Part shown: piece after piece, positions 25,223 through 39,544 of the stretch
Numbering within the stretch: the stretch's first letter is position 1
Layout of the letters: the number at the start of each line of letters is the position of its first letter
Assembly (NCBI GenBank): GCA_019306065.1
Contig: JAFDMF010000006.1
Coordinates: 23,519-87,518 of the forward strand
Length of the DNA stretch: 64,000 nt
Reading direction: 5' to 3'
From: Deltaproteobacteria bacterium
GTDB taxonomy: Bacteria > Desulfobacterota > Desulfobacteria > Desulfobacterales > JAFDMD01
The notes under the pieces: model-generated
Told to the model about the DNA's origin: nothing
The model's input: only the letters and a program-made list of their open reading frames with translations
Databases searched by the model: none
Translations under genes and position numbers: made by a program

Positions 25223-25951
25223 ATGAAACACATACTAATAACGGCAGCCGTAATCCAAGAAGCCGAATACATTATAAACAAGCTTGAAAACCGCTTTAAA
25301 ACAAAAACGGGAAACAAAACCGTAATATCCAGCGCCATTAATAACAAACTCGTAAAAATTGCAATAACCGGACCCGGCATAATAAATACAGCCCATACCG
25401 TTACCGCAGTTATCGAACAAAAACGCCCCGAATTAATAATACAAACAGGATGCGCGGGAGGCTTTAAACAAATCGGTTTAAAAATAGGAGATATATGTAT
25501 AGCCGACGAAGAGATAGACATCCAGCTGGGAATAGAATCTAAAAACAAAACATATCCGCTGCAAGAACTTCCCTTTCCTTTATATAAAGATAATAAAAAA
25601 GAGATAAAATCCGTATATCCGGCAGATGCCCAATTATCAAAAAAAGCTGAAGCTATTTTAAAAAAAAAGTTTTGCGATAACACATTAATAATGCGCGGAA
25701 AATTTGTTACCGTTTCAACCGTAACCGCAACCGATACAACAACGCAAAAATACTTTGAAGCTTTTAATTGCTGCGCCGAAAACATGGAAGGAGCAGCTAC
25801 CGCTTATATTGCCTTTATCTACGGCATACCCTTTATAGAAATAAGAGCCGTAAGCAATATATGCGGCAACAGAGAGATTGATAAATGGGATCTGAAAACC
25901 GCTTTTAAAAAAAGCGGGAAAGCGGTTTATGAAATAGTAAAAGAATTGTAA
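25223..25951 (+). CDS. mqnB: Futalosine hydrolase (PNP/MTAN fold)
   Basis: TGPGIIN, GCAGG, TVSTVT, ENMEGAA, IRAVSNICGNRE..WDL. Confidence 0.75.
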   Translation: MKHILITAAVIQEAEYIINKLENRFKTKTGNKTVISSAINNKLVKIAITGPGIINTAHTVTAVIEQKRPELIIQTGCAGGFKQIGLKIGDICIADEEIDIQLGIESKNKTYPLQELPFPLYKDNKKEIKSVYPADAQLSKKAEAILKKKFCDNTLIMRGKFVTVSTVTATDTTTQKYFEAFNCCAENMEGAATAYIAFIYGIPFIEIRAVSNICGNREIDKWDLKTAFKKSGKAVYEIVKEL

Positions 25952-25978
25952 AAAACAGGCTGTTTTATATTCCAAAAA

Positions 25979-26041
25979 CTTTTTATCAATATTTTTAAGG
26001 TCGTTTTTAACCGATTTCTTGAACGTAACTTTATAATTCAA
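25979..26041 (-). pseudogene. Truncated RelE/ParE toxin (first ~21 codons)
   Basis: MNYKVTFKKSVKNDLKNIDKK then loses toxin character and runs antisense into mqnB; overlaps the antitoxin stop. Confidence 0.75.
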
Positions 26042-26249
26042 GTTCTGTCCTCATATCGCTTAAAGAAATTATCGGATCATTAGAATCGTTCAATCTGTTT
26101 GCCGCAATCTGCATATCCGCCATCTCTTCCAAATATATCTCCAATGCTTTTTTTATATGAAAAGATTTCGGCATTTCCGTTTTTCGGGCTATTAAAGCAA
26201 TTGAAGAGGCTAATGAATCCGGAATTCTTATAGAAACTATTTTGCTCAT
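26031..26249 (-). CDS. RHH (CopG/RelB-type) antitoxin
   Basis: VSIRIP...KSFHIKKALEIYLEE..D.QIA..RL..ISL pattern; directly upstream of the RelE fragment. Confidence 0.82.
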   Translation of the reverse strand: MSKIVSIRIPDSLASSIALIARKTEMPKSFHIKKALEIYLEEMADMQIAANRLNDSNDPIISLSDMRTELEL

Positions 26250-26526
26250 TTTACGCCTTTATTATAATATTTGTAAGCGGTTATTTTTCTTCCGCCTCCT
26301 ATTACAATTTTCTCCCTTTCAAAAAGCGAGGCGGAAGATTTTATAATTCTTTTTAAAAATTTTATGAAAAAGTTACGTTGTTGTCAACACGGGATATTGA
26401 TTATATTGATCTTTCGATTCCGCTTAAAAAACTTTTGAAAAAAGCTAAAAAGCGATTTATGAAATAATAAAAAAAATGTAGAGTCGGAGAGGCGCAAAAA
26501 TAGAAAAGAAAAAAAGGGAAAAAATT

Positions 26527-26916: not shown

Positions 26917-27025
26917 ATTCGGCTTGTTAAAATTTTACCATGCCAACGGTTAATGAAGTAAAAATTAATGCCAACACGCTTTAAAAAGTTAATTTTTAAA
27001 ATAGACGCTTTTATTATCAATATGA
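26911..27025. repeat. Collapsed second copy of the NYN unit (both flanks joined)
   Basis: 26911-26957 matches 28174-28220 at 41/47; 26955-27025 matches about 29060-29122. Confidence 0.8.
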
Positions 27026-27072
27026 CAATGGATAGAACAAATTCTAAAAATAGTAAGGCGATAGATAAAAAA

Positions 27073-28149
27073 ATGAAAAAAAGAATAGCGGGAATTAACG
27101 TGGCAAGAGCGCTTGCGGTTATCGGAATGATAATAGTTAATTTTAAAATCGTATTAGGAAAAACAGGAAACAACTGCTTAAAAGCTTTTATTCAAATATT
27201 TGACGGAAAAGCCGCGGCTACCTTTGTAGTTTTGGCAGGCGTAGGACTGGCGTTAATGACAAACTCGGTTATAAAAAGTCAAAACCGTCAAAAATTAAAA
27301 ACAGCCCAAAAACGAATAATAAAACGAGCGCTCTTTCTATTTATAGTCGGGCTTTCATACATAAAAATATGGCCTGCGGACATACTTCATTTTTACGGAA
27401 TATACATGATGGCAACCCTTCCGTTTATTAACAAAAAACCAAAACAAGCCTTAATAGGAGCCCTTGCATTAATCTTTATCTACCCCTTGTTACTTCTGTT
27501 TTGGAATTATGAAACAGGCTGGAACTTCATTATTTTGGAATACAAAGACTTTTGGACATTAGAAGGATTTTTAAGAAACCTGTTTTACAACGGATTTCAT
27601 CCAGTTATCCCTTGGACTGCATTTATGCTTGTAGGCTTATGGTTTGGAAAACAGAATATGACCAATAAAAAATTTATAAAAAAAACCCTTATAATAAGCG
27701 CTTCCGCCTTAATCATAGTTCAATTTATTTCATACCTCTCAATTCGTATAATCTCGAAAATAAGCGGCGAAACAATAGAAAGCTTAACCGAAATTTTAGG
27801 AACAAGCCCAATGCCTCCAATGCCAATATATATGCTAAACGGCATATTTGCCGCATTAACAATAATATCCGCTTCTATTCTTATTTCCGAACAATTTCAA
27901 AACAGTAAAATCATAAACGCCTTAAATAAAACCGGACAACTCGCTTTAACATTTTATGTCGCCCACGTAATAATAGGAATCGGAATTGTCGAAGCGATTA
28001 ATCCCGCCAAACTAGGCAAATACTCGATAGAATTTTCTGCATCTTACGCTATAATATTTAGCCTGCTTTGCGTTCTGTTTGCCATTGTTTGGCTCCGCTA
28101 CAAAAAAACCGGACCATTGGAACTTATAATGCGAAAAATAACCGATTAA
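27073..28149 (+). CDS. DUF418/HGSNAT-like membrane protein
   Basis: RIAGINVARALAVIG, DILHFYG, GQLALTFYVAH, GPLE; start moved to MKKRIAG. Confidence 0.8.
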   Translation: MKKRIAGINVARALAVIGMIIVNFKIVLGKTGNNCLKAFIQIFDGKAAATFVVLAGVGLALMTNSVIKSQNRQKLKTAQKRIIKRALFLFIVGLSYIKIWPADILHFYGIYMMATLPFINKKPKQALIGALALIFIYPLLLLFWNYETGWNFIILEYKDFWTLEGFLRNLFYNGFHPVIPWTAFMLVGLWFGKQNMTNKKFIKKTLIISASALIIVQFISYLSIRIISKISGETIESLTEILGTSPMPPMPIYMLNGIFAALTIISASILISEQFQNSKIINALNKTGQLALTFYVAHVIIGIGIVEAINPAKLGKYSIEFSASYAIIFSLLCVLFAIVWLRYKKTGPLELIMRKITD

Positions 28150-28197: not shown

Positions 28198-28836
28198 TTA
28201 CCATATCAACGGTTTATGAATTGTAGTATTAGGAATAGTATCGGGCAACTGAGACGCTGCAAGCGCGCCCTTTCTTATTCGCTTATTAAAATCGGAGTAT
28301 TTCATAAGTTCTCTCGAAGGATGAGTTTTGCCGGGAGTAATAAGACCTATAACTTTTTTACGCTGGTTTTTTACCAAATTAAGAGATTCGGCTAAATCGC
28401 TGTCGTTTGATACTACTACTGCGCAATCATATAAATCAAGCCAAGCGTCATTTAATAAATGCAACGCAAGATTTACATCGGACCCTTTTTCTTCCGTTTT
28501 TATTACGTTTGCCCGCCCGATAGTATTGCCGAAACAATTTTTATCAATAGGGTATGCTAAAGGCTTACAAACATTATGACTGAGAAACTTGCCGTAATAA
28601 ATAAAAATTTCGGGAATATATTTTTTTAATGCTCTAATAAAAGTTTTTTGACGCGCCGACTTATTACGATCATTGTTTGTGTCCGATACATTTGCGGTAA
28701 AATATTTTATTGATATTATTTGATGATTGGGAAGAAGAAATTGAAATAATTTTTTAAAATCAAGCCATTTATACGGAGTGTTTTTAACTGCGCTATAATA
28801 AAAATTAAAGCCGTCAATATATATATAAGTTTTCAT
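28198..28836 (-). CDS. NYN (LabA/DUF88, PIN-like) ribonuclease
   Basis: YIDGFNFYY, EEKGSDVNLA, SNDSDL acidic motifs. Confidence 0.9.
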   Translation of the reverse strand: MKTYIYIDGFNFYYSAVKNTPYKWLDFKKLFQFLLPNHQIISIKYFTANVSDTNNDRNKSARQKTFIRALKKYIPEIFIYYGKFLSHNVCKPLAYPIDKNCFGNTIGRANVIKTEEKGSDVNLALHLLNDAWLDLYDCAVVVSNDSDLAESLNLVKNQRKKVIGLITPGKTHPSRELMKYSDFNKRIRKGALAASQLPDTIPNTTIHKPLIW

Positions 28837-28843
28837 AACCTCT

Positions 28844-28900
28844 AAAAAAGCAGAGGCTGCCGAAGCAGCCTCGCGCCCATCGGTCGAAACCGATGGGGTA
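28844..28900 (-). ncRNA. Candidate two-hairpin leader/small RNA upstream of the NYN gene
   Basis: CCCAUCGGU-UUCG-ACCGAUGGG, cgc, GAGGCUGC-UUCG-GCAGCCUC, then UGC-U6; TTGACA at 28951-28946. Confidence 0.6.
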
Positions 28901-29280
28901 ATTAGTAATTTAATGTTTAAGTTGGATATTCGATAAAATAATATTTGTCAAGCGTTTTTTTATAATTAGTCAATGCTAAAAAACCTACATTTTAAGCGTC
29001 AGCGATTTTGTCAATATTTTTTTTAATTTTAAGTTTTAAATTCTTGTAAATAGCTTACGGAAGTAAAAACCAATACCTTTTAAAAATTAATTTTTAAAAT
29101 AGACGCTTCTATTATAATATGATATGATAAACATATTTTTAAAAAACAAATTCGATTGTAAAACCGAATTGACGCATAACAAACTATTTTATTCTAGTTC
29201 AAAGCGAAAAAAATTTCTCGACAAAAAAATCAAACAAAATAGAAAGTTAGGCGGCAACTTTTACAAAGGAGTTTATTATT

Positions 29281-30120
29281 ATGAATATAAACGAACCGAA
29301 AATTACCCCCAATCAAATCTTAAAACTTAACGACCAAAATTTTAACCCGCAAAATATATGTATAGTAAGCGGCGCTGGAACCGGCATCGGCAGAGCCGTT
29401 GCAATAGCCGCCGCTTTTAACGGCATTCTTACCGTAGGGCTTGATATTAACGAAGCGGAAGGCGAAAAAACAAAAAAGCTTGCGGAAGATATAGGCGGTA
29501 AATTGGTTTTTATAAAAACCGATCTTGCCAACGACAAAGGTATTGAAACTGCGGTTGAAGAAGCCTCAAAACTCGGAAAAATAAAATTTTTGGCAAACAT
29601 TGCAGGAATACAGCATATTGATCCTATAGAAAACTTTCCTATGGAAAAATATGATCTAATGCAAAAAATAATGCTTCGCGCTCCTTTTTTTTTATCGAAA
29701 CTTGTAATCCCGTATATGAAAAATCAAAACGAACCTTTTGGAGTTATTGCAAACATGGCGTCCGTTCATGCCCATGTATGCACTATTAATAAATCTGTTT
29801 ATAATATTACAAAATTCGGCTTACGCGCGCTTAGCCAATCAATATCTGCGGAAGGAAACGGAAAAATCCGCTCCTTTACCATAAGCTCAGGATTTGTAAA
29901 AACTCCCCTTGCCCTAAACCAAATACCTTCCCAAGCAAAACAGCGCGGAATAACCGCAGAACAGGTTGTAACAGACGTTATGATGGGAAAATCCAGAGTT
30001 AAAGAGATGATGTCTCCCATAGAAGTTGCGAATCTTTTTATCTTCGGATTTTCAAAACATTCAAAATATCTTATAGGAGGAGACCTCTTATTTGACGGAG
30101 GCATGACATTAACATATTAA
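29281..30120 (+). CDS. SDR oxidoreductase, 3-hydroxybutyrate dehydrogenase-like
   Basis: SGAGTGIG, AGIQHIDPIENFP, ASVH, YNITK, FVKTPL. Confidence 0.85.
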   Translation: MNINEPKITPNQILKLNDQNFNPQNICIVSGAGTGIGRAVAIAAAFNGILTVGLDINEAEGEKTKKLAEDIGGKLVFIKTDLANDKGIETAVEEASKLGKIKFLANIAGIQHIDPIENFPMEKYDLMQKIMLRAPFFLSKLVIPYMKNQNEPFGVIANMASVHAHVCTINKSVYNITKFGLRALSQSISAEGNGKIRSFTISSGFVKTPLALNQIPSQAKQRGITAEQVVTDVMMGKSRVKEMMSPIEVANLFIFGFSKHSKYLIGGDLLFDGGMTLTY

Positions 30121-35573: not shown

Positions 35574-35615
35574 AAAAAAAAGCTTAATACTTTTAACAGC
35601 GTTAAGCTTTTTTTT
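35574..35615. terminator. Bidirectional terminator-like hairpin
   Basis: aaaaaaaagcttaa / ttaagctttttttt between convergent genes. Confidence 0.55.
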
Positions 35616-36768
35616 TAATTCTCGGTATTTTTATAATAAACTGTTCCCCTTCCGTATCATTTATAAACTCTATATCTGGCTGGTTAGATAGAGCCCTTAT
35701 TATGCCTGTCCCAAACCCGCTAAAAGATAAAATCTGCAAACTATAAGCAAGTATTCTATTATTTCTAACAACCGGATTGCCATATTTAATAGCTTCAACG
35801 GTAAGACTGTTAGGCAGTTTTCCAGGGCTTATAATCTCTATTCTGTTATCGAAAATCATTAATCTTATAGGCGCATTTTTAAAATAATCTCTATGAACAA
35901 GAGCGTTTATTAATAATTCTTTCAAAGCTATTTCAGATATTTCAAGAACGCCGCGGGTATTAAAATCTTCCGATTTTTGAATATGTTTTAGGTTTGACAT
36001 AAAAAAAGTCATTCCTTTTTCAAATATGTCCGGAATAACCCCGCCAATATCTCTCGGCTTATTTCTATATTCTTTGCTTCCGATTTCATTTCCGAAAAAT
36101 GAAACCGCTTTAACGCAAAAAGCCGGTTTGAATTTTTGAGGCTCTTTTCCGAAAAATAACAAACCCGCCAAAGTTAATCTGTTATTGTGCAATGCTTTTT
36201 TAAGTATAAGCGCCTTTTCAAAGGTCAAACCTGCCTCTTCTATTGTTTTATCAACCTCTTTTTTAAAATAGCTTTCAAATCTATCCTTATCAATATCGTC
36301 AATCGACGTATCATAAACATCCATTTCGTCTGCAGAAAAATTTGTTCCGCTTTGAAAAAGTCTCAACAGTTCGTTATTATCGGTTACTCTTCTTTTATCC
36401 GCTCCCTGTTTAATCCATATGGCATTGTTTTTATCTTTATAAGGTTTATGAATGTCTTCTTTAATATGTATAACCAAAATATTTTTTTCTTCTATCTTAA
36501 CCGATTCCGTCTTAATATATATAGGAGGTATAATATTATTATGAGCTACGTTTGCGGCAAGGTTTTGGGTTTTATCAAATTGGTCGGCGGATAATCCGAT
36601 AATTTCGCCTATTTTATCCTTTACCCCGATTATTATAATACCTCCGTCCGAATTGGAAAATGCGGTCATCTCAGCGGCAAAAGCATCGGGAGAATCTATT
36701 TTTTCTTTAAACTGCACGGCGCTTGTTTCGTTTCCGCTTATAATATCTAATAATTCTATCGAATTCAT
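35602..36768 (-). CDS. Schlafen/AlbA_2 domain + HATPase_c_4 protein
   Basis: ETSAVQFK, AFSNSDGG.IIIGVKD, ELLINALVHRDY, SPGKLP, GTGI; ATGA overlap with upstream gene. Confidence 0.85.
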   Translation of the reverse strand: MNSIELLDIISGNETSAVQFKEKIDSPDAFAAEMTAFSNSDGGIIIIGVKDKIGEIIGLSADQFDKTQNLAANVAHNNIIPPIYIKTESVKIEEKNILVIHIKEDIHKPYKDKNNAIWIKQGADKRRVTDNNELLRLFQSGTNFSADEMDVYDTSIDDIDKDRFESYFKKEVDKTIEEAGLTFEKALILKKALHNNRLTLAGLLFFGKEPQKFKPAFCVKAVSFFGNEIGSKEYRNKPRDIGGVIPDIFEKGMTFFMSNLKHIQKSEDFNTRGVLEISEIALKELLINALVHRDYFKNAPIRLMIFDNRIEIISPGKLPNSLTVEAIKYGNPVVRNNRILAYSLQILSFSGFGTGIIRALSNQPDIEFINDTEGEQFIIKIPRIKKKA

Positions 36769-39413
36769 CTTTTAACGCTCCATTTTTCATAAATATCTTT
36801 TCTTCTGTTAAAGGCTTCTTCTCCGCCTTCCATTATTTTTATAATCTTTTTCTGCATTTCAAAGTTGTCTATGCTTCCTTCCTGTAAATTGATTTTTGAT
36901 TCCGAATAACCGCAGGAAATTATCTTTTCGCTGTCTCCGAGAACCGGAATGTTAGGATTATGAGTGGCAAATATAAACTGCATTTTGCCTTTTAATTCTC
37001 TGATTTTTTTTATAACATCCTTATAAATGGTTTGATTGTCCAAATCATCTTCCGGCTGATCGATTATTAAAATATCCGTCTCTTTTTGAGCAAGCAGAAA
37101 AAGTATTAACGCGGTTGCCCGTTGTCCTAACGAATGATCTTTTAACGGTTTGTTATTATAATTAATTGTAAATAAGGTTTCTACGTTAAAAGTTATTAAC
37201 TCAAAAAGTTTATTTTCAAATATTTCATCAAACTTAACAAACTGATTATTACTCAATATAGTTTGCAATCTGCTTTTATCTCTATATATTTCTATAAAAT
37301 CTTTATATTCTTCCTTAATTTTTTCATAAGAGTAGCCTGTTATGCCGCTTCCTTTAAAAGTTTGCTTTAATTTATCTAAAAACAGATCTCTTCTGCCTTT
37401 ATATTCCAAAGAGATTGAAATGGGATTTTCATAAGAGTTGATACACTTAACCTCGTTTTCTATATTTCTATATCGTTGAAGCCAAAGTTCATTTAATTCG
37501 GATATTTTATCACTTAACGATGTTATATATCCCTCTCTTTTTGCCTCCGATTTTTCAATCTCTTTAAGTTTTAATTTAAAATTCTCTATTCGCGTATTAA
37601 GTTTAAGAAAATTATCGGGATTAATATTAGGTATATTTATCTCTCTTTTTGTTGCGGAAAATTCCTCCGTAAGAGTATCTTTTTTATTTTTTAAACTTTC
37701 TTCCACCGTTTTAAATTCGGTTATAAATTGCTCTATATTTTTATTTGCTTCTATTATATTATTAAACTCCGCTTTAATATTATTAAATATTTTTTCGGCG
37801 GTTTCAAAAACTTCTTTATTATATTCGGAGTTAAAAAAAGCGTCTTGAAAAAACGGTTCATAATTGCCGCATAATTCTTTCAAACTCTTGTCAAAGTCGG
37901 AAAGCCTGTCTAATATTTCATTAATCTTTGTAATATCAGAATTAATGCCGCTTTCTTTTTTAAGCTTATCTTCAATGCCGCTTTCTTTGAATATTTTAAG
38001 TTTTTCTTCCGCATCCTTTATATTCTGTTCTGTTTCTCTTTTTGCTTCGTCAAGCTCCTCAAGTCTTTTTAATTCAATTGTAATATCGTATATTTCTACG
38101 CGTTTTTCTTTGATTCCAACTTCTATACTTTCCAAACGATTTCCTATAAGTTTTTTTACCAAATCCGCTTCAAAATCAATATTTTTATTGGAAAGATCCT
38201 TTTGTCCGAAATATACGGGTTTTTTTAAAACAGTTTCAAGCCCGGCTTCAATTCTACTATTATCCTTATCGTAAATATTCTCTTTTTCACCGTATATTTT
38301 TTCAATTCTATACTCTTTGTTATGCCGGTTTCGGATATAAACAACAATCTTGCCGCCGCTTTTTAATGTATGCTCTATAAGATTATTTTTATAATCTTTA
38401 TCTGCGGCAATATCTTCCAACGAAATTCCAAGAATATAACGCAATACCTCAATAACCGAAGATTTACCGCTTCCTCTTATTCCTATAAAATTATTCAATT
38501 CGGAAGAAAAATCAATCTCTTTATCGTCAAGCAGTCCGCCTTCAAAAGAGATTGATTTAATATAAGAATTGGAAACTTCGGGAGGATTATCTTCTCGGAC
38601 TCGATTTTTTTTATCTTTTAAAGCATATTTAAGGGCTTCAAAATTAAAATCTCCGATTTTAATATAAGTCTTTTTATCATTATCTTTCTGTTTGCCAAAT
38701 GTTCCTATTTCATCTAAATTTTTACAATCCGAGCCTTCCAAATATGCAGGTATTGTTTCTTTATTTGGAAACCATTTTTCTAAATTTATTTTTAGATCAT
38801 AGCTTCTAACTTTTTGAAACCCAAACACATTTTGTTTAAAAAGGTTATCTTTTGCAAAATCTGAAATTCTTCCGCCGTCCAATCCTTTTAAAAAACCGTT
38901 ATTCTTTTCCACATGCGCCATTATAACAAAAGAATCCCGACCCTCTTTTCTATGCTTGTTAAGCTTTTCAAATAAATCCGAAAGATTATATTTACAGAGC
39001 GCATTTGCATTTAAACGATTCGATACCCCTTCAAAAGCGGAAGTTAAAAACTGTCCTATAAAATTTTCATCATTTTTTATCCATGTTTCATAATCAAATG
39101 CTATTAATGTGTGGATTCCATTGCTTCCGTCCTGTACCGAAAGCTCTACTCCGGGTACAAGCCATATATTTTCTTTACCGCCTCTTTTTATTAAAGCTTT
39201 ATATTCCTCTAAATTAAATTTATTATGATTTGCAATCAAACCTATCTTAATATCTTCTTCAACCAATCTGTTTATATATGCTCCGATAAAATCGTTATCA
39301 TTTTCTTCATATATAAACTCTTGATCCGCTTTTGTATGAAGATGAAAATCCGCTTTAAACCATTTGGAACCGTTTTTAAAAAAGTTTTTATCCGAATTCA
39401 TTTTAATATCCAT
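36765..39413 (-). CDS. PHP phosphoesterase + SMC-like ABC ATPase (TrlF/Ppl-like)
   Basis: DFHLHT, NHN, PGVE, AHVE; GIRGSGKS, long coiled coil, SLGQ, IIDQPED, ATHN; start probably 39413 or 39401. Confidence 0.85.
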   Translation of the reverse strand: MDIKMNSDKNFFKNGSKWFKADFHLHTKADQEFIYEENDNDFIGAYINRLVEEDIKIGLIANHNKFNLEEYKALIKRGGKENIWLVPGVELSVQDGSNGIHTLIAFDYETWIKNDENFIGQFLTSAFEGVSNRLNANALCKYNLSDLFEKLNKHRKEGRDSFVIMAHVEKNNGFLKGLDGGRISDFAKDNLFKQNVFGFQKVRSYDLKINLEKWFPNKETIPAYLEGSDCKNLDEIGTFGKQKDNDKKTYIKIGDFNFEALKYALKDKKNRVREDNPPEVSNSYIKSISFEGGLLDDKEIDFSSELNNFIGIRGSGKSSVIEVLRYILGISLEDIAADKDYKNNLIEHTLKSGGKIVVYIRNRHNKEYRIEKIYGEKENIYDKDNSRIEAGLETVLKKPVYFGQKDLSNKNIDFEADLVKKLIGNRLESIEVGIKEKRVEIYDITIELKRLEELDEAKRETEQNIKDAEEKLKIFKESGIEDKLKKESGINSDITKINEILDRLSDFDKSLKELCGNYEPFFQDAFFNSEYNKEVFETAEKIFNNIKAEFNNIIEANKNIEQFITEFKTVEESLKNKKDTLTEEFSATKREINIPNINPDNFLKLNTRIENFKLKLKEIEKSEAKREGYITSLSDKISELNELWLQRYRNIENEVKCINSYENPISISLEYKGRRDLFLDKLKQTFKGSGITGYSYEKIKEEYKDFIEIYRDKSRLQTILSNNQFVKFDEIFENKLFELITFNVETLFTINYNNKPLKDHSLGQRATALILFLLAQKETDILIIDQPEDDLDNQTIYKDVIKKIRELKGKMQFIFATHNPNIPVLGDSEKIISCGYSESKINLQEGSIDNFEMQKKIIKIMEGGEEAFNRRKDIYEKWSVKR

Positions 39414-39544
39414 ACTTTTTAATTTTGAAATTATTACCTTTATAATACATAACCGCAAAAATTAATCCGCTATATTTTATTAGATAAAATTAAATTTATA
39501 TAAACTTCAAGTCAACTCTTAATTAAAAAAGAAAAGAACAGCAA

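Follow-up and report, generated by a model that had tools for sequence, protein, structure and literature searches.

A covarying two-hairpin RNA gene beside HEC-09-type NYN ribonuclease genes, a candidate type III-like RNA antitoxin

We analysed a 64,000-nucleotide stretch of the genome of a Deltaproteobacteria bacterium (contig JAFDMF010000006.1; the whole stretch is called the window here), in which an intact gene for a NYN-domain ribonuclease of the HEC-09 family is directly preceded, on the same minus strand, by the gene of a small RNA built of two GC-rich hairpins. The RNA accompanies NYN homologues across bacterial phyla with its stems covarying, has its own promoter and terminator, stands on the other strand in some relatives and is multiplied into tandem arrays in others. 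We propose that the locus is a type III-like module of an RNA antitoxin and a NYN toxin in which the RNA would hold the nuclease inactive in trans, a reading to which we give an even chance.

Results

Anatomy of the locus in the window

An earlier note on this DNA had listed, along the minus strand, a promoter box, a leader, two hairpins with UUCG loops, a U-run and a ribosome-binding sequence before an intact NYN gene, and all of these elements were found in their places, from TTGACA through to the ATG. The TTGACA box (28951-28946) begins the promoter of the RNA gene and was assigned as a -35 box because the same position is held in homologous loci. A weak candidate -10 box, TATCCA (28928-28923), lies 17 nt after it and is proposed from this spacing and from the clearer -10 boxes of the homologues. 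An AT-rich leader then separates TTGACA from hairpin 1 (28897-28876), whose perfect stem of 9 bp carries a UUCG loop and has a conserved base that is C-rich on its 5' side and G-rich on its 3' side. The linker CGC (28875-28873) leads into hairpin 2 (28872-28853), a perfect stem of 8 bp topped by C-UUCG-G that forms the intrinsic terminator stem and is extended, over 28850-28874, by two conserved G-C/C-G pairs around a bulged U. UGC (28852-28850) and a tract of six U's (28849-28844) follow, and a terminator scan calls hairpin 2 together with this T-run. The Shine-Dalgarno-like AGAGG (28843-28839) stands 2 nt (UU) before the ATG, so that the U-tract ends 7 nt before the NYN gene, an intact frame of 212 aa (28836-28198).

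The small RNA predicted from this layout would be some 70-75 nt long (28844-28915, minus strand) and would consist of a short A-rich leader, hairpin 1, hairpin 2 and a U-tail; its 3' end is set by the terminator, and its 5' end is placed tentatively at 28915. The contrast between GC-rich hairpins and AT-rich flanks, to which the earlier note had drawn attention, was borne out by GC fractions of 0.48-0.52 across the hairpins against 0.18-0.30 in the flanks. A 136-nt stretch of this region folds with an energy of -36.4 kcal/mol, compared with -22.4 +/- 3.1 kcal/mol for 200 dinucleotide shuffles (z = -4.5), none of which was as stable. Each hairpin occurs once in the window when up to 3 mismatches are allowed, and none of 100 shuffles gave any match.

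Constrained folding found no competing antiterminator structure in the window: when the 5' arm of hairpin 2 is barred from pairing, 13.2 kcal/mol are lost and hairpin 1 stays as it was. A riboswitch or antiterminator was rejected on this ground, as no alternative fold competes. The hairpins were also rejected as the terminator of the upstream gene (29281-30120), which lies on the opposite strand, with the promoter box preceding the hairpins. An integron attC site was dropped because the hairpins stand before the gene and after a promoter and have no conserved core across loci, and the likeness of the hairpin 1 loop to a tRNA T-arm was dropped because the loops differ in other subfamilies.

The two hairpins are conserved and covary upstream of NYN genes

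The 160 nt upstream of the NYN homologue were compared in 34 reference-genome loci from more than ten phyla or classes (Desulfobacterota, Chloroflexota, Acidobacteriota, Bacillota, Verrucomicrobiota, Nitrospirota, Spirochaetota, Actinomycetota, Beta- and Alphaproteobacteria, and others), and the same two hairpins adjoin the NYN gene in 31 of them. Their common plan is a C run, hairpin 1 closed by G's, the junction YGCGRGG, hairpin 2 ending in CCYCUGC, and a U-run. A consensus fold computed from 33 aligned regions shows compensatory changes at 12 of its 13 predicted pairs, and a covariance model built from that alignment, here called R1, comprises 87 positions and 18 pairs. When the 33 training copies were realigned, 94.0% of the pair cells were paired, compared with 78.3% after shuffling, and 16 of the 18 pairs had changed on both sides; none of 500 shuffles reached the observed values, and sliding the partners by 1-3 columns reduced pairing to 38-53%.

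Among 78 metagenome loci with a NYN homologue, R1 matched 68, with E<1e-6 in 66. The 68 copies (59 distinct sequences) had 96.6% of cells paired against 82.1% after shuffling and compensatory changes at 16 of the 18 pairs; again no shuffle out of 500 was as good, and the slid controls fell to 44-55%. In the 59 distinct sequences all 8 modelled pairs of hairpin 1 carry compensatory changes, as do 8 of the 10 pairs of hairpin 2, where 99.3% of cells are paired. Viral contigs gave R1 matches at E<=0.1 in 25 of 35 loci. Overall, the matches extend from 79% down to about 40% NYN identity, and the two hairpins covary upstream of homologous stand-alone NYN genes, which is where the earlier note had proposed to look for a conserved structure.

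Ten metagenome loci gave no R1 match. The upstream DNA is cut by the contig end in six of these (L061, L102, L104, L109, L110 and L113), two (L105 and L106) show the same architecture by eye, and in the remaining two (L078 and L098) nothing clear was seen. On distant plasmid variants R1 gives only marginal scores, 8-16 bits at the expected place, and their likeness to the window RNA rests on reading their folds and not on the R1 score. Across the copies, what is conserved consists of internal helices and the letters of the junction, and what varies lies in base-paired stems.

A second NYN paralogue is present in the same genome as the window (L139, G000:C12:44516-44983). It is 40% identical and comes from a subfamily that has a CxxC insert; upstream of it stand a T7 run and GGAG, and the two-hairpin RNA is not clear there. 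Other relatives with the CxxC insert do have hairpin pairs upstream, namely L127, where they follow a TTGACA-17-TATATT promoter, L136 and L137.

The RNA is single-copy in its genome and outside described RNA families

The earlier note had considered that the hairpins might prove to be a genome-wide repeat, and this was rejected, since BLAST and R1 each give one copy in the genome. The 136-nt stretch has one BLAST match in the 1.97-Mb genome, and R1 finds one strong match (28819-28910, 76.4 bits), the next one scoring 14.9 bits (E 0.55).

Rfam includes the abiF motif. In release 15 no relevant Rfam family was found at the window region at E<=10, the best match on the correct strand being an unrelated snoRNA model within the coding region (23 bits against a gathering threshold of 50), and at 14 related loci (E<=0.5) the only Rfam match was the ColE1 RNAI of the plasmid loci. 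Full-text searches, whose coverage left aside subscription journals and the supplements of the HEC-09 preprint, found no report of a partner RNA, and the words 'non-coding' and 'ncRNA' are absent from the text of that preprint, supplements aside (10.1101/2024.01.29.577857). The results point to an undescribed RNA partner of a protein family that is already catalogued as HEC-09. The author of the earlier note knew of no characterisation of such a system; the protein family is in part characterised already, being PADLOC HEC-09, which, according to the preprint text, has been tried against phages.

The NYN protein belongs to the HEC-09 family and looks active

The sole Pfam match of the window protein is NYN (PF01936; E 1e-12, 49.2 bits against a cut-off of 24.2), and the PADLOC profile HEC-09 (PDLC04163) matches residues 4-204 along positions 5-191 of 203 with E 2.9e-36, so the protein is a member of the HEC-09/NYN family. 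Among 17 sequences, which range down to 39% identity, D8, N11, E115-D120, D145 and D147 never vary. The AlphaFold2 model has a pLDDT of 89.5, and its best fold matches are the LabA-like structure 2qip (VPA0982) and the MARF1 NYN domains 5yaa and 6fdl, with identities of only 11-17% and a Foldseek probability of 1.00 to the MARF1 NYN domain; a search of solved structures by sequence gave no meaningful match. Because the catalytic residues are invariant and the NYN fold is confident, the predicted nuclease looks active.

The family is large: of 8000 candidate relatives scored, 7946 have E<=0.001, many of them from Desulfobacterales-type metagenome bins and 76-78% identical. The homologues H34, H50, H52 and H56, from plasmids of Pseudomonas and Klebsiella, bear the annotation '6-hydroxy-3-succinoylpyridine 3-monooxygenase HspA/nicB', a name that stems from nicotine-degradation work. 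It does not suit the fold of a NYN nuclease and looks as if it had been carried over from other annotations.

The RNA, and no protein, is the constant companion of NYN genes

In a sample of 150 other genomes of the phylum R1 matched in 9, and all 6 genomes of this set that have a close NYN homologue (E<1e-29) carry the RNA immediately upstream of it. A protein partner, of which the earlier note had seen none in the window, was not found among the relatives either. When neighbouring open reading frames (ORFs) of at least 80 aa were clustered at 33 loci, the only cluster present in more than two loci was NYN itself, and no cluster of smaller ORFs (30-150 aa, at most 500 nt from NYN) occurred in more than three of 41 loci. 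Three clusters of such small ORFs reached three loci, and two of them, when placed against the model matches, overlie the RNA region. A protein antitoxin was rejected, no neighbouring ORF being conserved in either set.

Homologues were found on 456 plasmids (207 from Klebsiella, 61 from Xanthomonas, 49 from Escherichia, and others), many of them of 3.5-6 kb and including ColE1-type replicons, with small plasmids of E. coli, Klebsiella and Salmonella among the hosts; they were also found in prophages and viral contigs. Such mobile contexts, together with the HEC-09 listing, are typical of addiction or defence genes.

The fate of the two genes was surveyed at 112 loci, in which NYN was intact in 68, broken in 30, cut by contig ends in 13 and uncertain in 1. 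Where NYN is intact, the RNA match is strong in 62 loci, weak in 2 and missing in 4, and three of those 4 show the same architecture by eye. Broken NYN genes (frameshift, stop, truncation or insertion sequence) make up 30 of the 98 scorable loci, and a strong RNA match is kept in 28 of the 30. The frequent loss of NYN while the RNA stays, the existence of solitary RNA copies (see below) and the rarity of intact NYN genes without the RNA weakly suggest the pattern expected of a toxin and its antidote. At one locus (L091:100-1500) an insertion breaks the NYN frame after about codon 7, its end resembling the C-terminus of an IS200/IS605 TnpB-type protein, and the RNA upstream is intact (58.8 bits).

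The RNA is a gene of its own, found in several orientations

Of 54 distinct copies, 44 have a TTGAC[ATC] box no more than 60 nt upstream of where the model begins, mostly at a distance of 28-41 nt, and such boxes at homologous RNA loci often have a good -10 box at a distance of 17 nt. The usual order, with the RNA on the same strand directly before NYN, holds for 65 of the 68 metagenome matches and 22 of the 26 viral-contig matches. At L087, L089 and L093 the RNA is divergent, being encoded upstream on the opposite strand with its own TTGACC-17-TATAAT promoter and terminator; the NYN proteins of these loci are 44% identical, and the gene is intact in L087 and L089 (L093 was outside the scoring). 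The viral-contig locus L169, unrelated to these three, has the divergent order too. The RNA is convergent at L141, in the Mycobacterium prophage prophiGD43A-1, and at L165-L167, where it starts downstream of NYN and ends at its stop codon, overlapping the last ~25 nt of the frame. Given the divergent and convergent orders, the RNA would therefore act in trans.

RNA copies also occur on their own. The 99%-complete genome G081 contains three promoter-bearing copies (L120, L125 and L126) and no NYN gene detectable by protein search or with the Pfam model. These copies share only 110-300 nt and lie in unrelated contexts; two of them share about 300 nt, and one adjoins a DDE transposase gene. In genome G050 a copy (L121, G050:C381) has no adjacent NYN gene, a GNAT acetyltransferase ORF of 180 aa lies about 320 nt downstream of it, and the DNA just upstream of the RNA reads N. 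Taken together, the divergent, convergent and orphan arrangements make a purely cis-acting leader insufficient as an explanation.

Tandem arrays in plasmid and other relatives

The E. coli plasmid CP057030.1, a ColE1-type replicon of 4.6 kb, carries a NYN gene (locus L140; 40% identical), and its only other annotated genes are mobilisation genes, rop and one hypothetical protein. Four tandem units of 29-33 nt, each a GC-rich hairpin of the hairpin-1 type and an A-rich spacer, precede NYN and are followed by a terminator hairpin with eight U's that ends 9 nt before the ATG. Tandem Repeats Finder reports this array as period 33 with 2.6 copies and period 29 with 3.1 copies, and 17 plasmids match the stretch, of which 16 hold most of it. 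Two full two-hairpin units stand in tandem at L018 (Sapientia aquatica) and at L151, with the U-run on the last unit only, and L103 has an additional hairpin of the hairpin-1 type. Plasmid relatives from Klebsiella, Thiothrix, Pseudomonas and Rhizobium show a structured RNA, a terminator and directly the NYN start, and a second hairpin type, opening with a conserved CAACAACUAACCC-like stretch, is common to NYN forms of ~320-340 aa, including that of Xanthomonas.

Near-perfect palindromes with stems of ~20-34 bp lie upstream of the module at L103:1-75, L146:~570-640 and L147:~350-400, and on small Klebsiella plasmids a helix-turn-helix gene stands divergently upstream of it. These may be operator or replication elements.

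Discussion

A type III-like reading of the NYN module

In the mechanism that we propose, a sigma-70-type promoter, taken to be strong, would drive the two-hairpin RNA of ~70 nt, and hairpin 2 would terminate most transcripts, leaving an excess of free small RNA. As there is no space for a separate NYN promoter in the window, we infer that NYN is expressed by read-through of the terminator, in which case rare longer transcripts would carry the NYN frame and yield little of the protein. The RNA would bind NYN and keep it inactive, probably through hairpin 1 and the conserved helix junction; this site is proposed because covariation is seen in the stems and the letters of the junction do not change, and hairpin 1 is the likely unit of specific recognition. 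Should the supply of RNA stop, because the plasmid is lost, a phage shuts off host transcription or the RNA decays, NYN would be set free to cleave cellular or phage RNA, and growth would stop. The nearest working precedents for such a mechanism are ToxIN-type systems and AbiF with its RNA RCd22.

The earlier note had suggested a NYN-family equivalent of type III systems, and this interpretation is partly supported. The arrays in relatives, the trans orders and the carriage by plasmids and prophages strengthen it. The locus stands outside the known type III families.

Several points weigh against the reading of the RNA as an antitoxin in a type III-like module. The minimum-energy and consensus folds are two nested hairpins, in contrast to the pseudoknot usual for type III RNAs, although the folding tools used predict no pseudoknots, and Tandem Repeats Finder, run on window positions 28700-29300, found no array, the RNA being a single unit. 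A promoter scan called no promoter at TTGACA/TATCCA, the -10 box of the window being poor. As to conservation, the 33 training loci fit R1 by construction, for which reason the further locus sets were examined, and of these the metagenome set partly duplicates the genome set (L067 and L011, for instance), and many loci are close kin, so that locus counts overstate independence. The asymmetry in decay is weak evidence and partly expected, because the 640-nt NYN frame offers mutation a target ten times as large as the RNA does and because assembly errors in metagenome-assembled genomes can mimic frameshifts. The orphan copies in G081 and G050 might just as well point to an NYN-independent role of the RNA. 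Lastly, by the account in the preprint text, none of the coliphages tried was countered by an HEC-09 representative cloned together with the region taken to be its native promoter (10.1101/2024.01.29.577857).

Other explanations of the RNA

The RNA could be a positive cofactor, forming a stable ribonucleoprotein with NYN in which it serves as scaffold, sensor or specificity element, without which the nuclease would not find its targets or be activated on them. Co-inheritance, the trans arrangements and the conserved junction show a partnership and not its sign, and retention of the RNA at nearly every locus with an intact NYN gene (62 strong and 2 weak matches of 68) is predicted equally well by a cofactor. 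We nonetheless consider a cofactor unlikely, given that orphan RNAs and broken-NYN loci with an intact RNA fit an antidote better, that tandem arrays followed by a terminator are a hallmark of antitoxin excess, and that the RNA has no variable guide-like segment, its variable parts being base-paired.

It is likewise improbable that the RNA is only a leader acting in cis, that is, a constitutive or protein-controlled attenuator, perhaps cleaved by NYN for autoregulation, with no function as a free RNA. The prevailing same-strand order directly before NYN agrees with such a leader, as does the 7-nt distance from U-tract to ATG, by which NYN must be read through, and attenuation is certainly part of the design. 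A leader is contradicted, however, by the divergent RNAs of L087, L089, L093 and L169, the convergent ones of L141 and L165-L167 and the orphans of G081, each with its own promoter and terminator; it also finds no antiterminator pairing in the window, and the conservation of the junction across phyla exceeds what a terminator needs.

Pairing of the RNA with NYN mRNA in the manner of a type I antisense RNA, to block translation or trigger decay, is very unlikely. The convergent RNAs do overlap the end of the NYN frame, but the energies of duplexes with the 5' region of NYN at divergent loci were matched by shuffled RNAs in 26 of 200 cases (L089) and 50 of 200 (L169), by a crude mononucleotide shuffle, and the conserved parts of the RNA are internal helices and not single-stranded seeds.

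Least credible is a functionless promoter-terminator cassette or small repeat carried along with the gene, which the textbook terminator of hairpin 2 and the duplication of promoter and RNA as a 110-300-nt unit in G081 might suggest, and which is already largely refuted by the single copy in the window genome, by covariation across phyla and over NYN identities from 79% to ~40%, and by hairpin 1, which is the most conserved unit and the one repeated, although it plays no part in termination.

What an RNA antitoxin would mean for the NYN family

On the reading of the RNA as an antitoxin of NYN, we would go further, with slightly less than even confidence, and suggest that HEC-09-type NYN proteins and their dedicated hairpin RNAs make up a fourth and very widespread class of RNA-antitoxin/protein-toxin systems, built on the type III plan and new in both parts, with a NYN/PIN-like toxin, a non-pseudoknot RNA present as a single unit or an array and on either strand, and orphan copies that serve as stand-alone antidotes. 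If this is true, HEC-09, a 'single gene' without a phenotype, would be explained as a silenced toxin awaiting its trigger. Annotation now offers no more for the family than 'NYN domain-containing protein' or an entry as a defence candidate of one gene; with a partner RNA it becomes a system of two components for which a concrete mechanism can be proposed. Should the RNA be an antitoxin, this kind of system would reach a second nuclease superfamily and a different RNA architecture, an RNA family would be gained that is missing from Rfam 15 and from annotation pipelines that use such libraries, and the carriage of NYN genes by plasmids and prophages would have a simple explanation.

Genomic surroundings of the window copy

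The upstream neighbour on the opposite strand to NYN (29281-30120) encodes a short-chain dehydrogenase, and the downstream neighbour (26968-28149), convergent with NYN, a DUF418/HGSNAT membrane protein (acyltransferase). A TRAP transporter is also among the neighbours, the wider surroundings are housekeeping genes, and no defence island was seen adjoining the NYN gene in the window. Some 7 kb away from the module lies a Schlafen/AlbA_2-domain gene (35602-36768, minus strand), followed by an AAA_21 ATPase gene of 897 aa (36765-39458, minus strand), a possible defence pair.

Elsewhere in the window, a 49-nt direct repeat (25902-25950 and 26432-26480, 84% identical), which is a copy of the 3' end of a phosphorylase-family gene (25223-25951), flanks two ORFs. 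One of them (26031-26249, minus strand) is ribbon-helix-helix/DUF6290 antitoxin-like, and the other (25715-26041, minus strand; 108 aa) has a RelE-like N-terminus and no Pfam match. The stretch 25715-26480 looks like a toxin-antitoxin cassette inserted with duplication of its target.

Comparison with known systems

The window protein shares its fold and acidic active site with the eukaryotic NYN RNase MARF1 and with the bacterial LabA-like protein VPA0982, and to our knowledge no partner RNA gene is known for either. The likeness to HEC-09 extends to membership of the same protein family, the MARF1-like NYN fold and the conserved aspartates. The preprint text describes HEC-09 as one NYN gene that occurs inside Hma defence systems, with a fold likened to the NYN domain of MARF1 and three conserved aspartates (Payne et al., bioRxiv 10.1101/2024.01.29.577857); the window copy, by contrast, is not embedded in a defence system, and that description of HEC-09 is of one protein gene.

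AbiF loci resemble the NYN module in placing a structured RNA with few conserved hairpin motifs upstream of a single nuclease-like toxin gene, and in being prophage-borne. They differ in the protein, which is Abi_2/HEPN-like and not NYN (Pfam gave no Abi_2 match in the window protein), and in an unrelated RNA motif. The AbiF RNA RCd22 of Clostridioides difficile neutralises its toxin in cis as well as in trans and binds it directly, according to the account in PMC12373285.

The closest parallel in build is with type III systems (ToxIN, CptIN, TenpIN and AbiQ/antiQ), for which a promoter, RNA repeats, a terminator and a nuclease gene are the elements that define a locus (Blower et al. 2012, as quoted in PMC12283969). 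One promoter, a non-coding RNA, a Rho-independent terminator and a ribonuclease gene, which would be reached by read-through, follow each other in both, and both have no protein antitoxin, tandem RNA repeats (in relatives of the NYN module) and settings in plasmids and phage defence. The NYN module is set apart by its NYN/PIN-like fold, which is not that of ToxN, CptN or TenpN (AbiQ-like), by the single RNA unit of the window and of most relatives, the array being present in L140, L018 and L151, and by an RNA that can be divergent or convergent. Because its toxin fold differs and the window has no repeat array, the locus is outside the ToxIN, CptIN and TenpIN families, though it is built as type III loci are.

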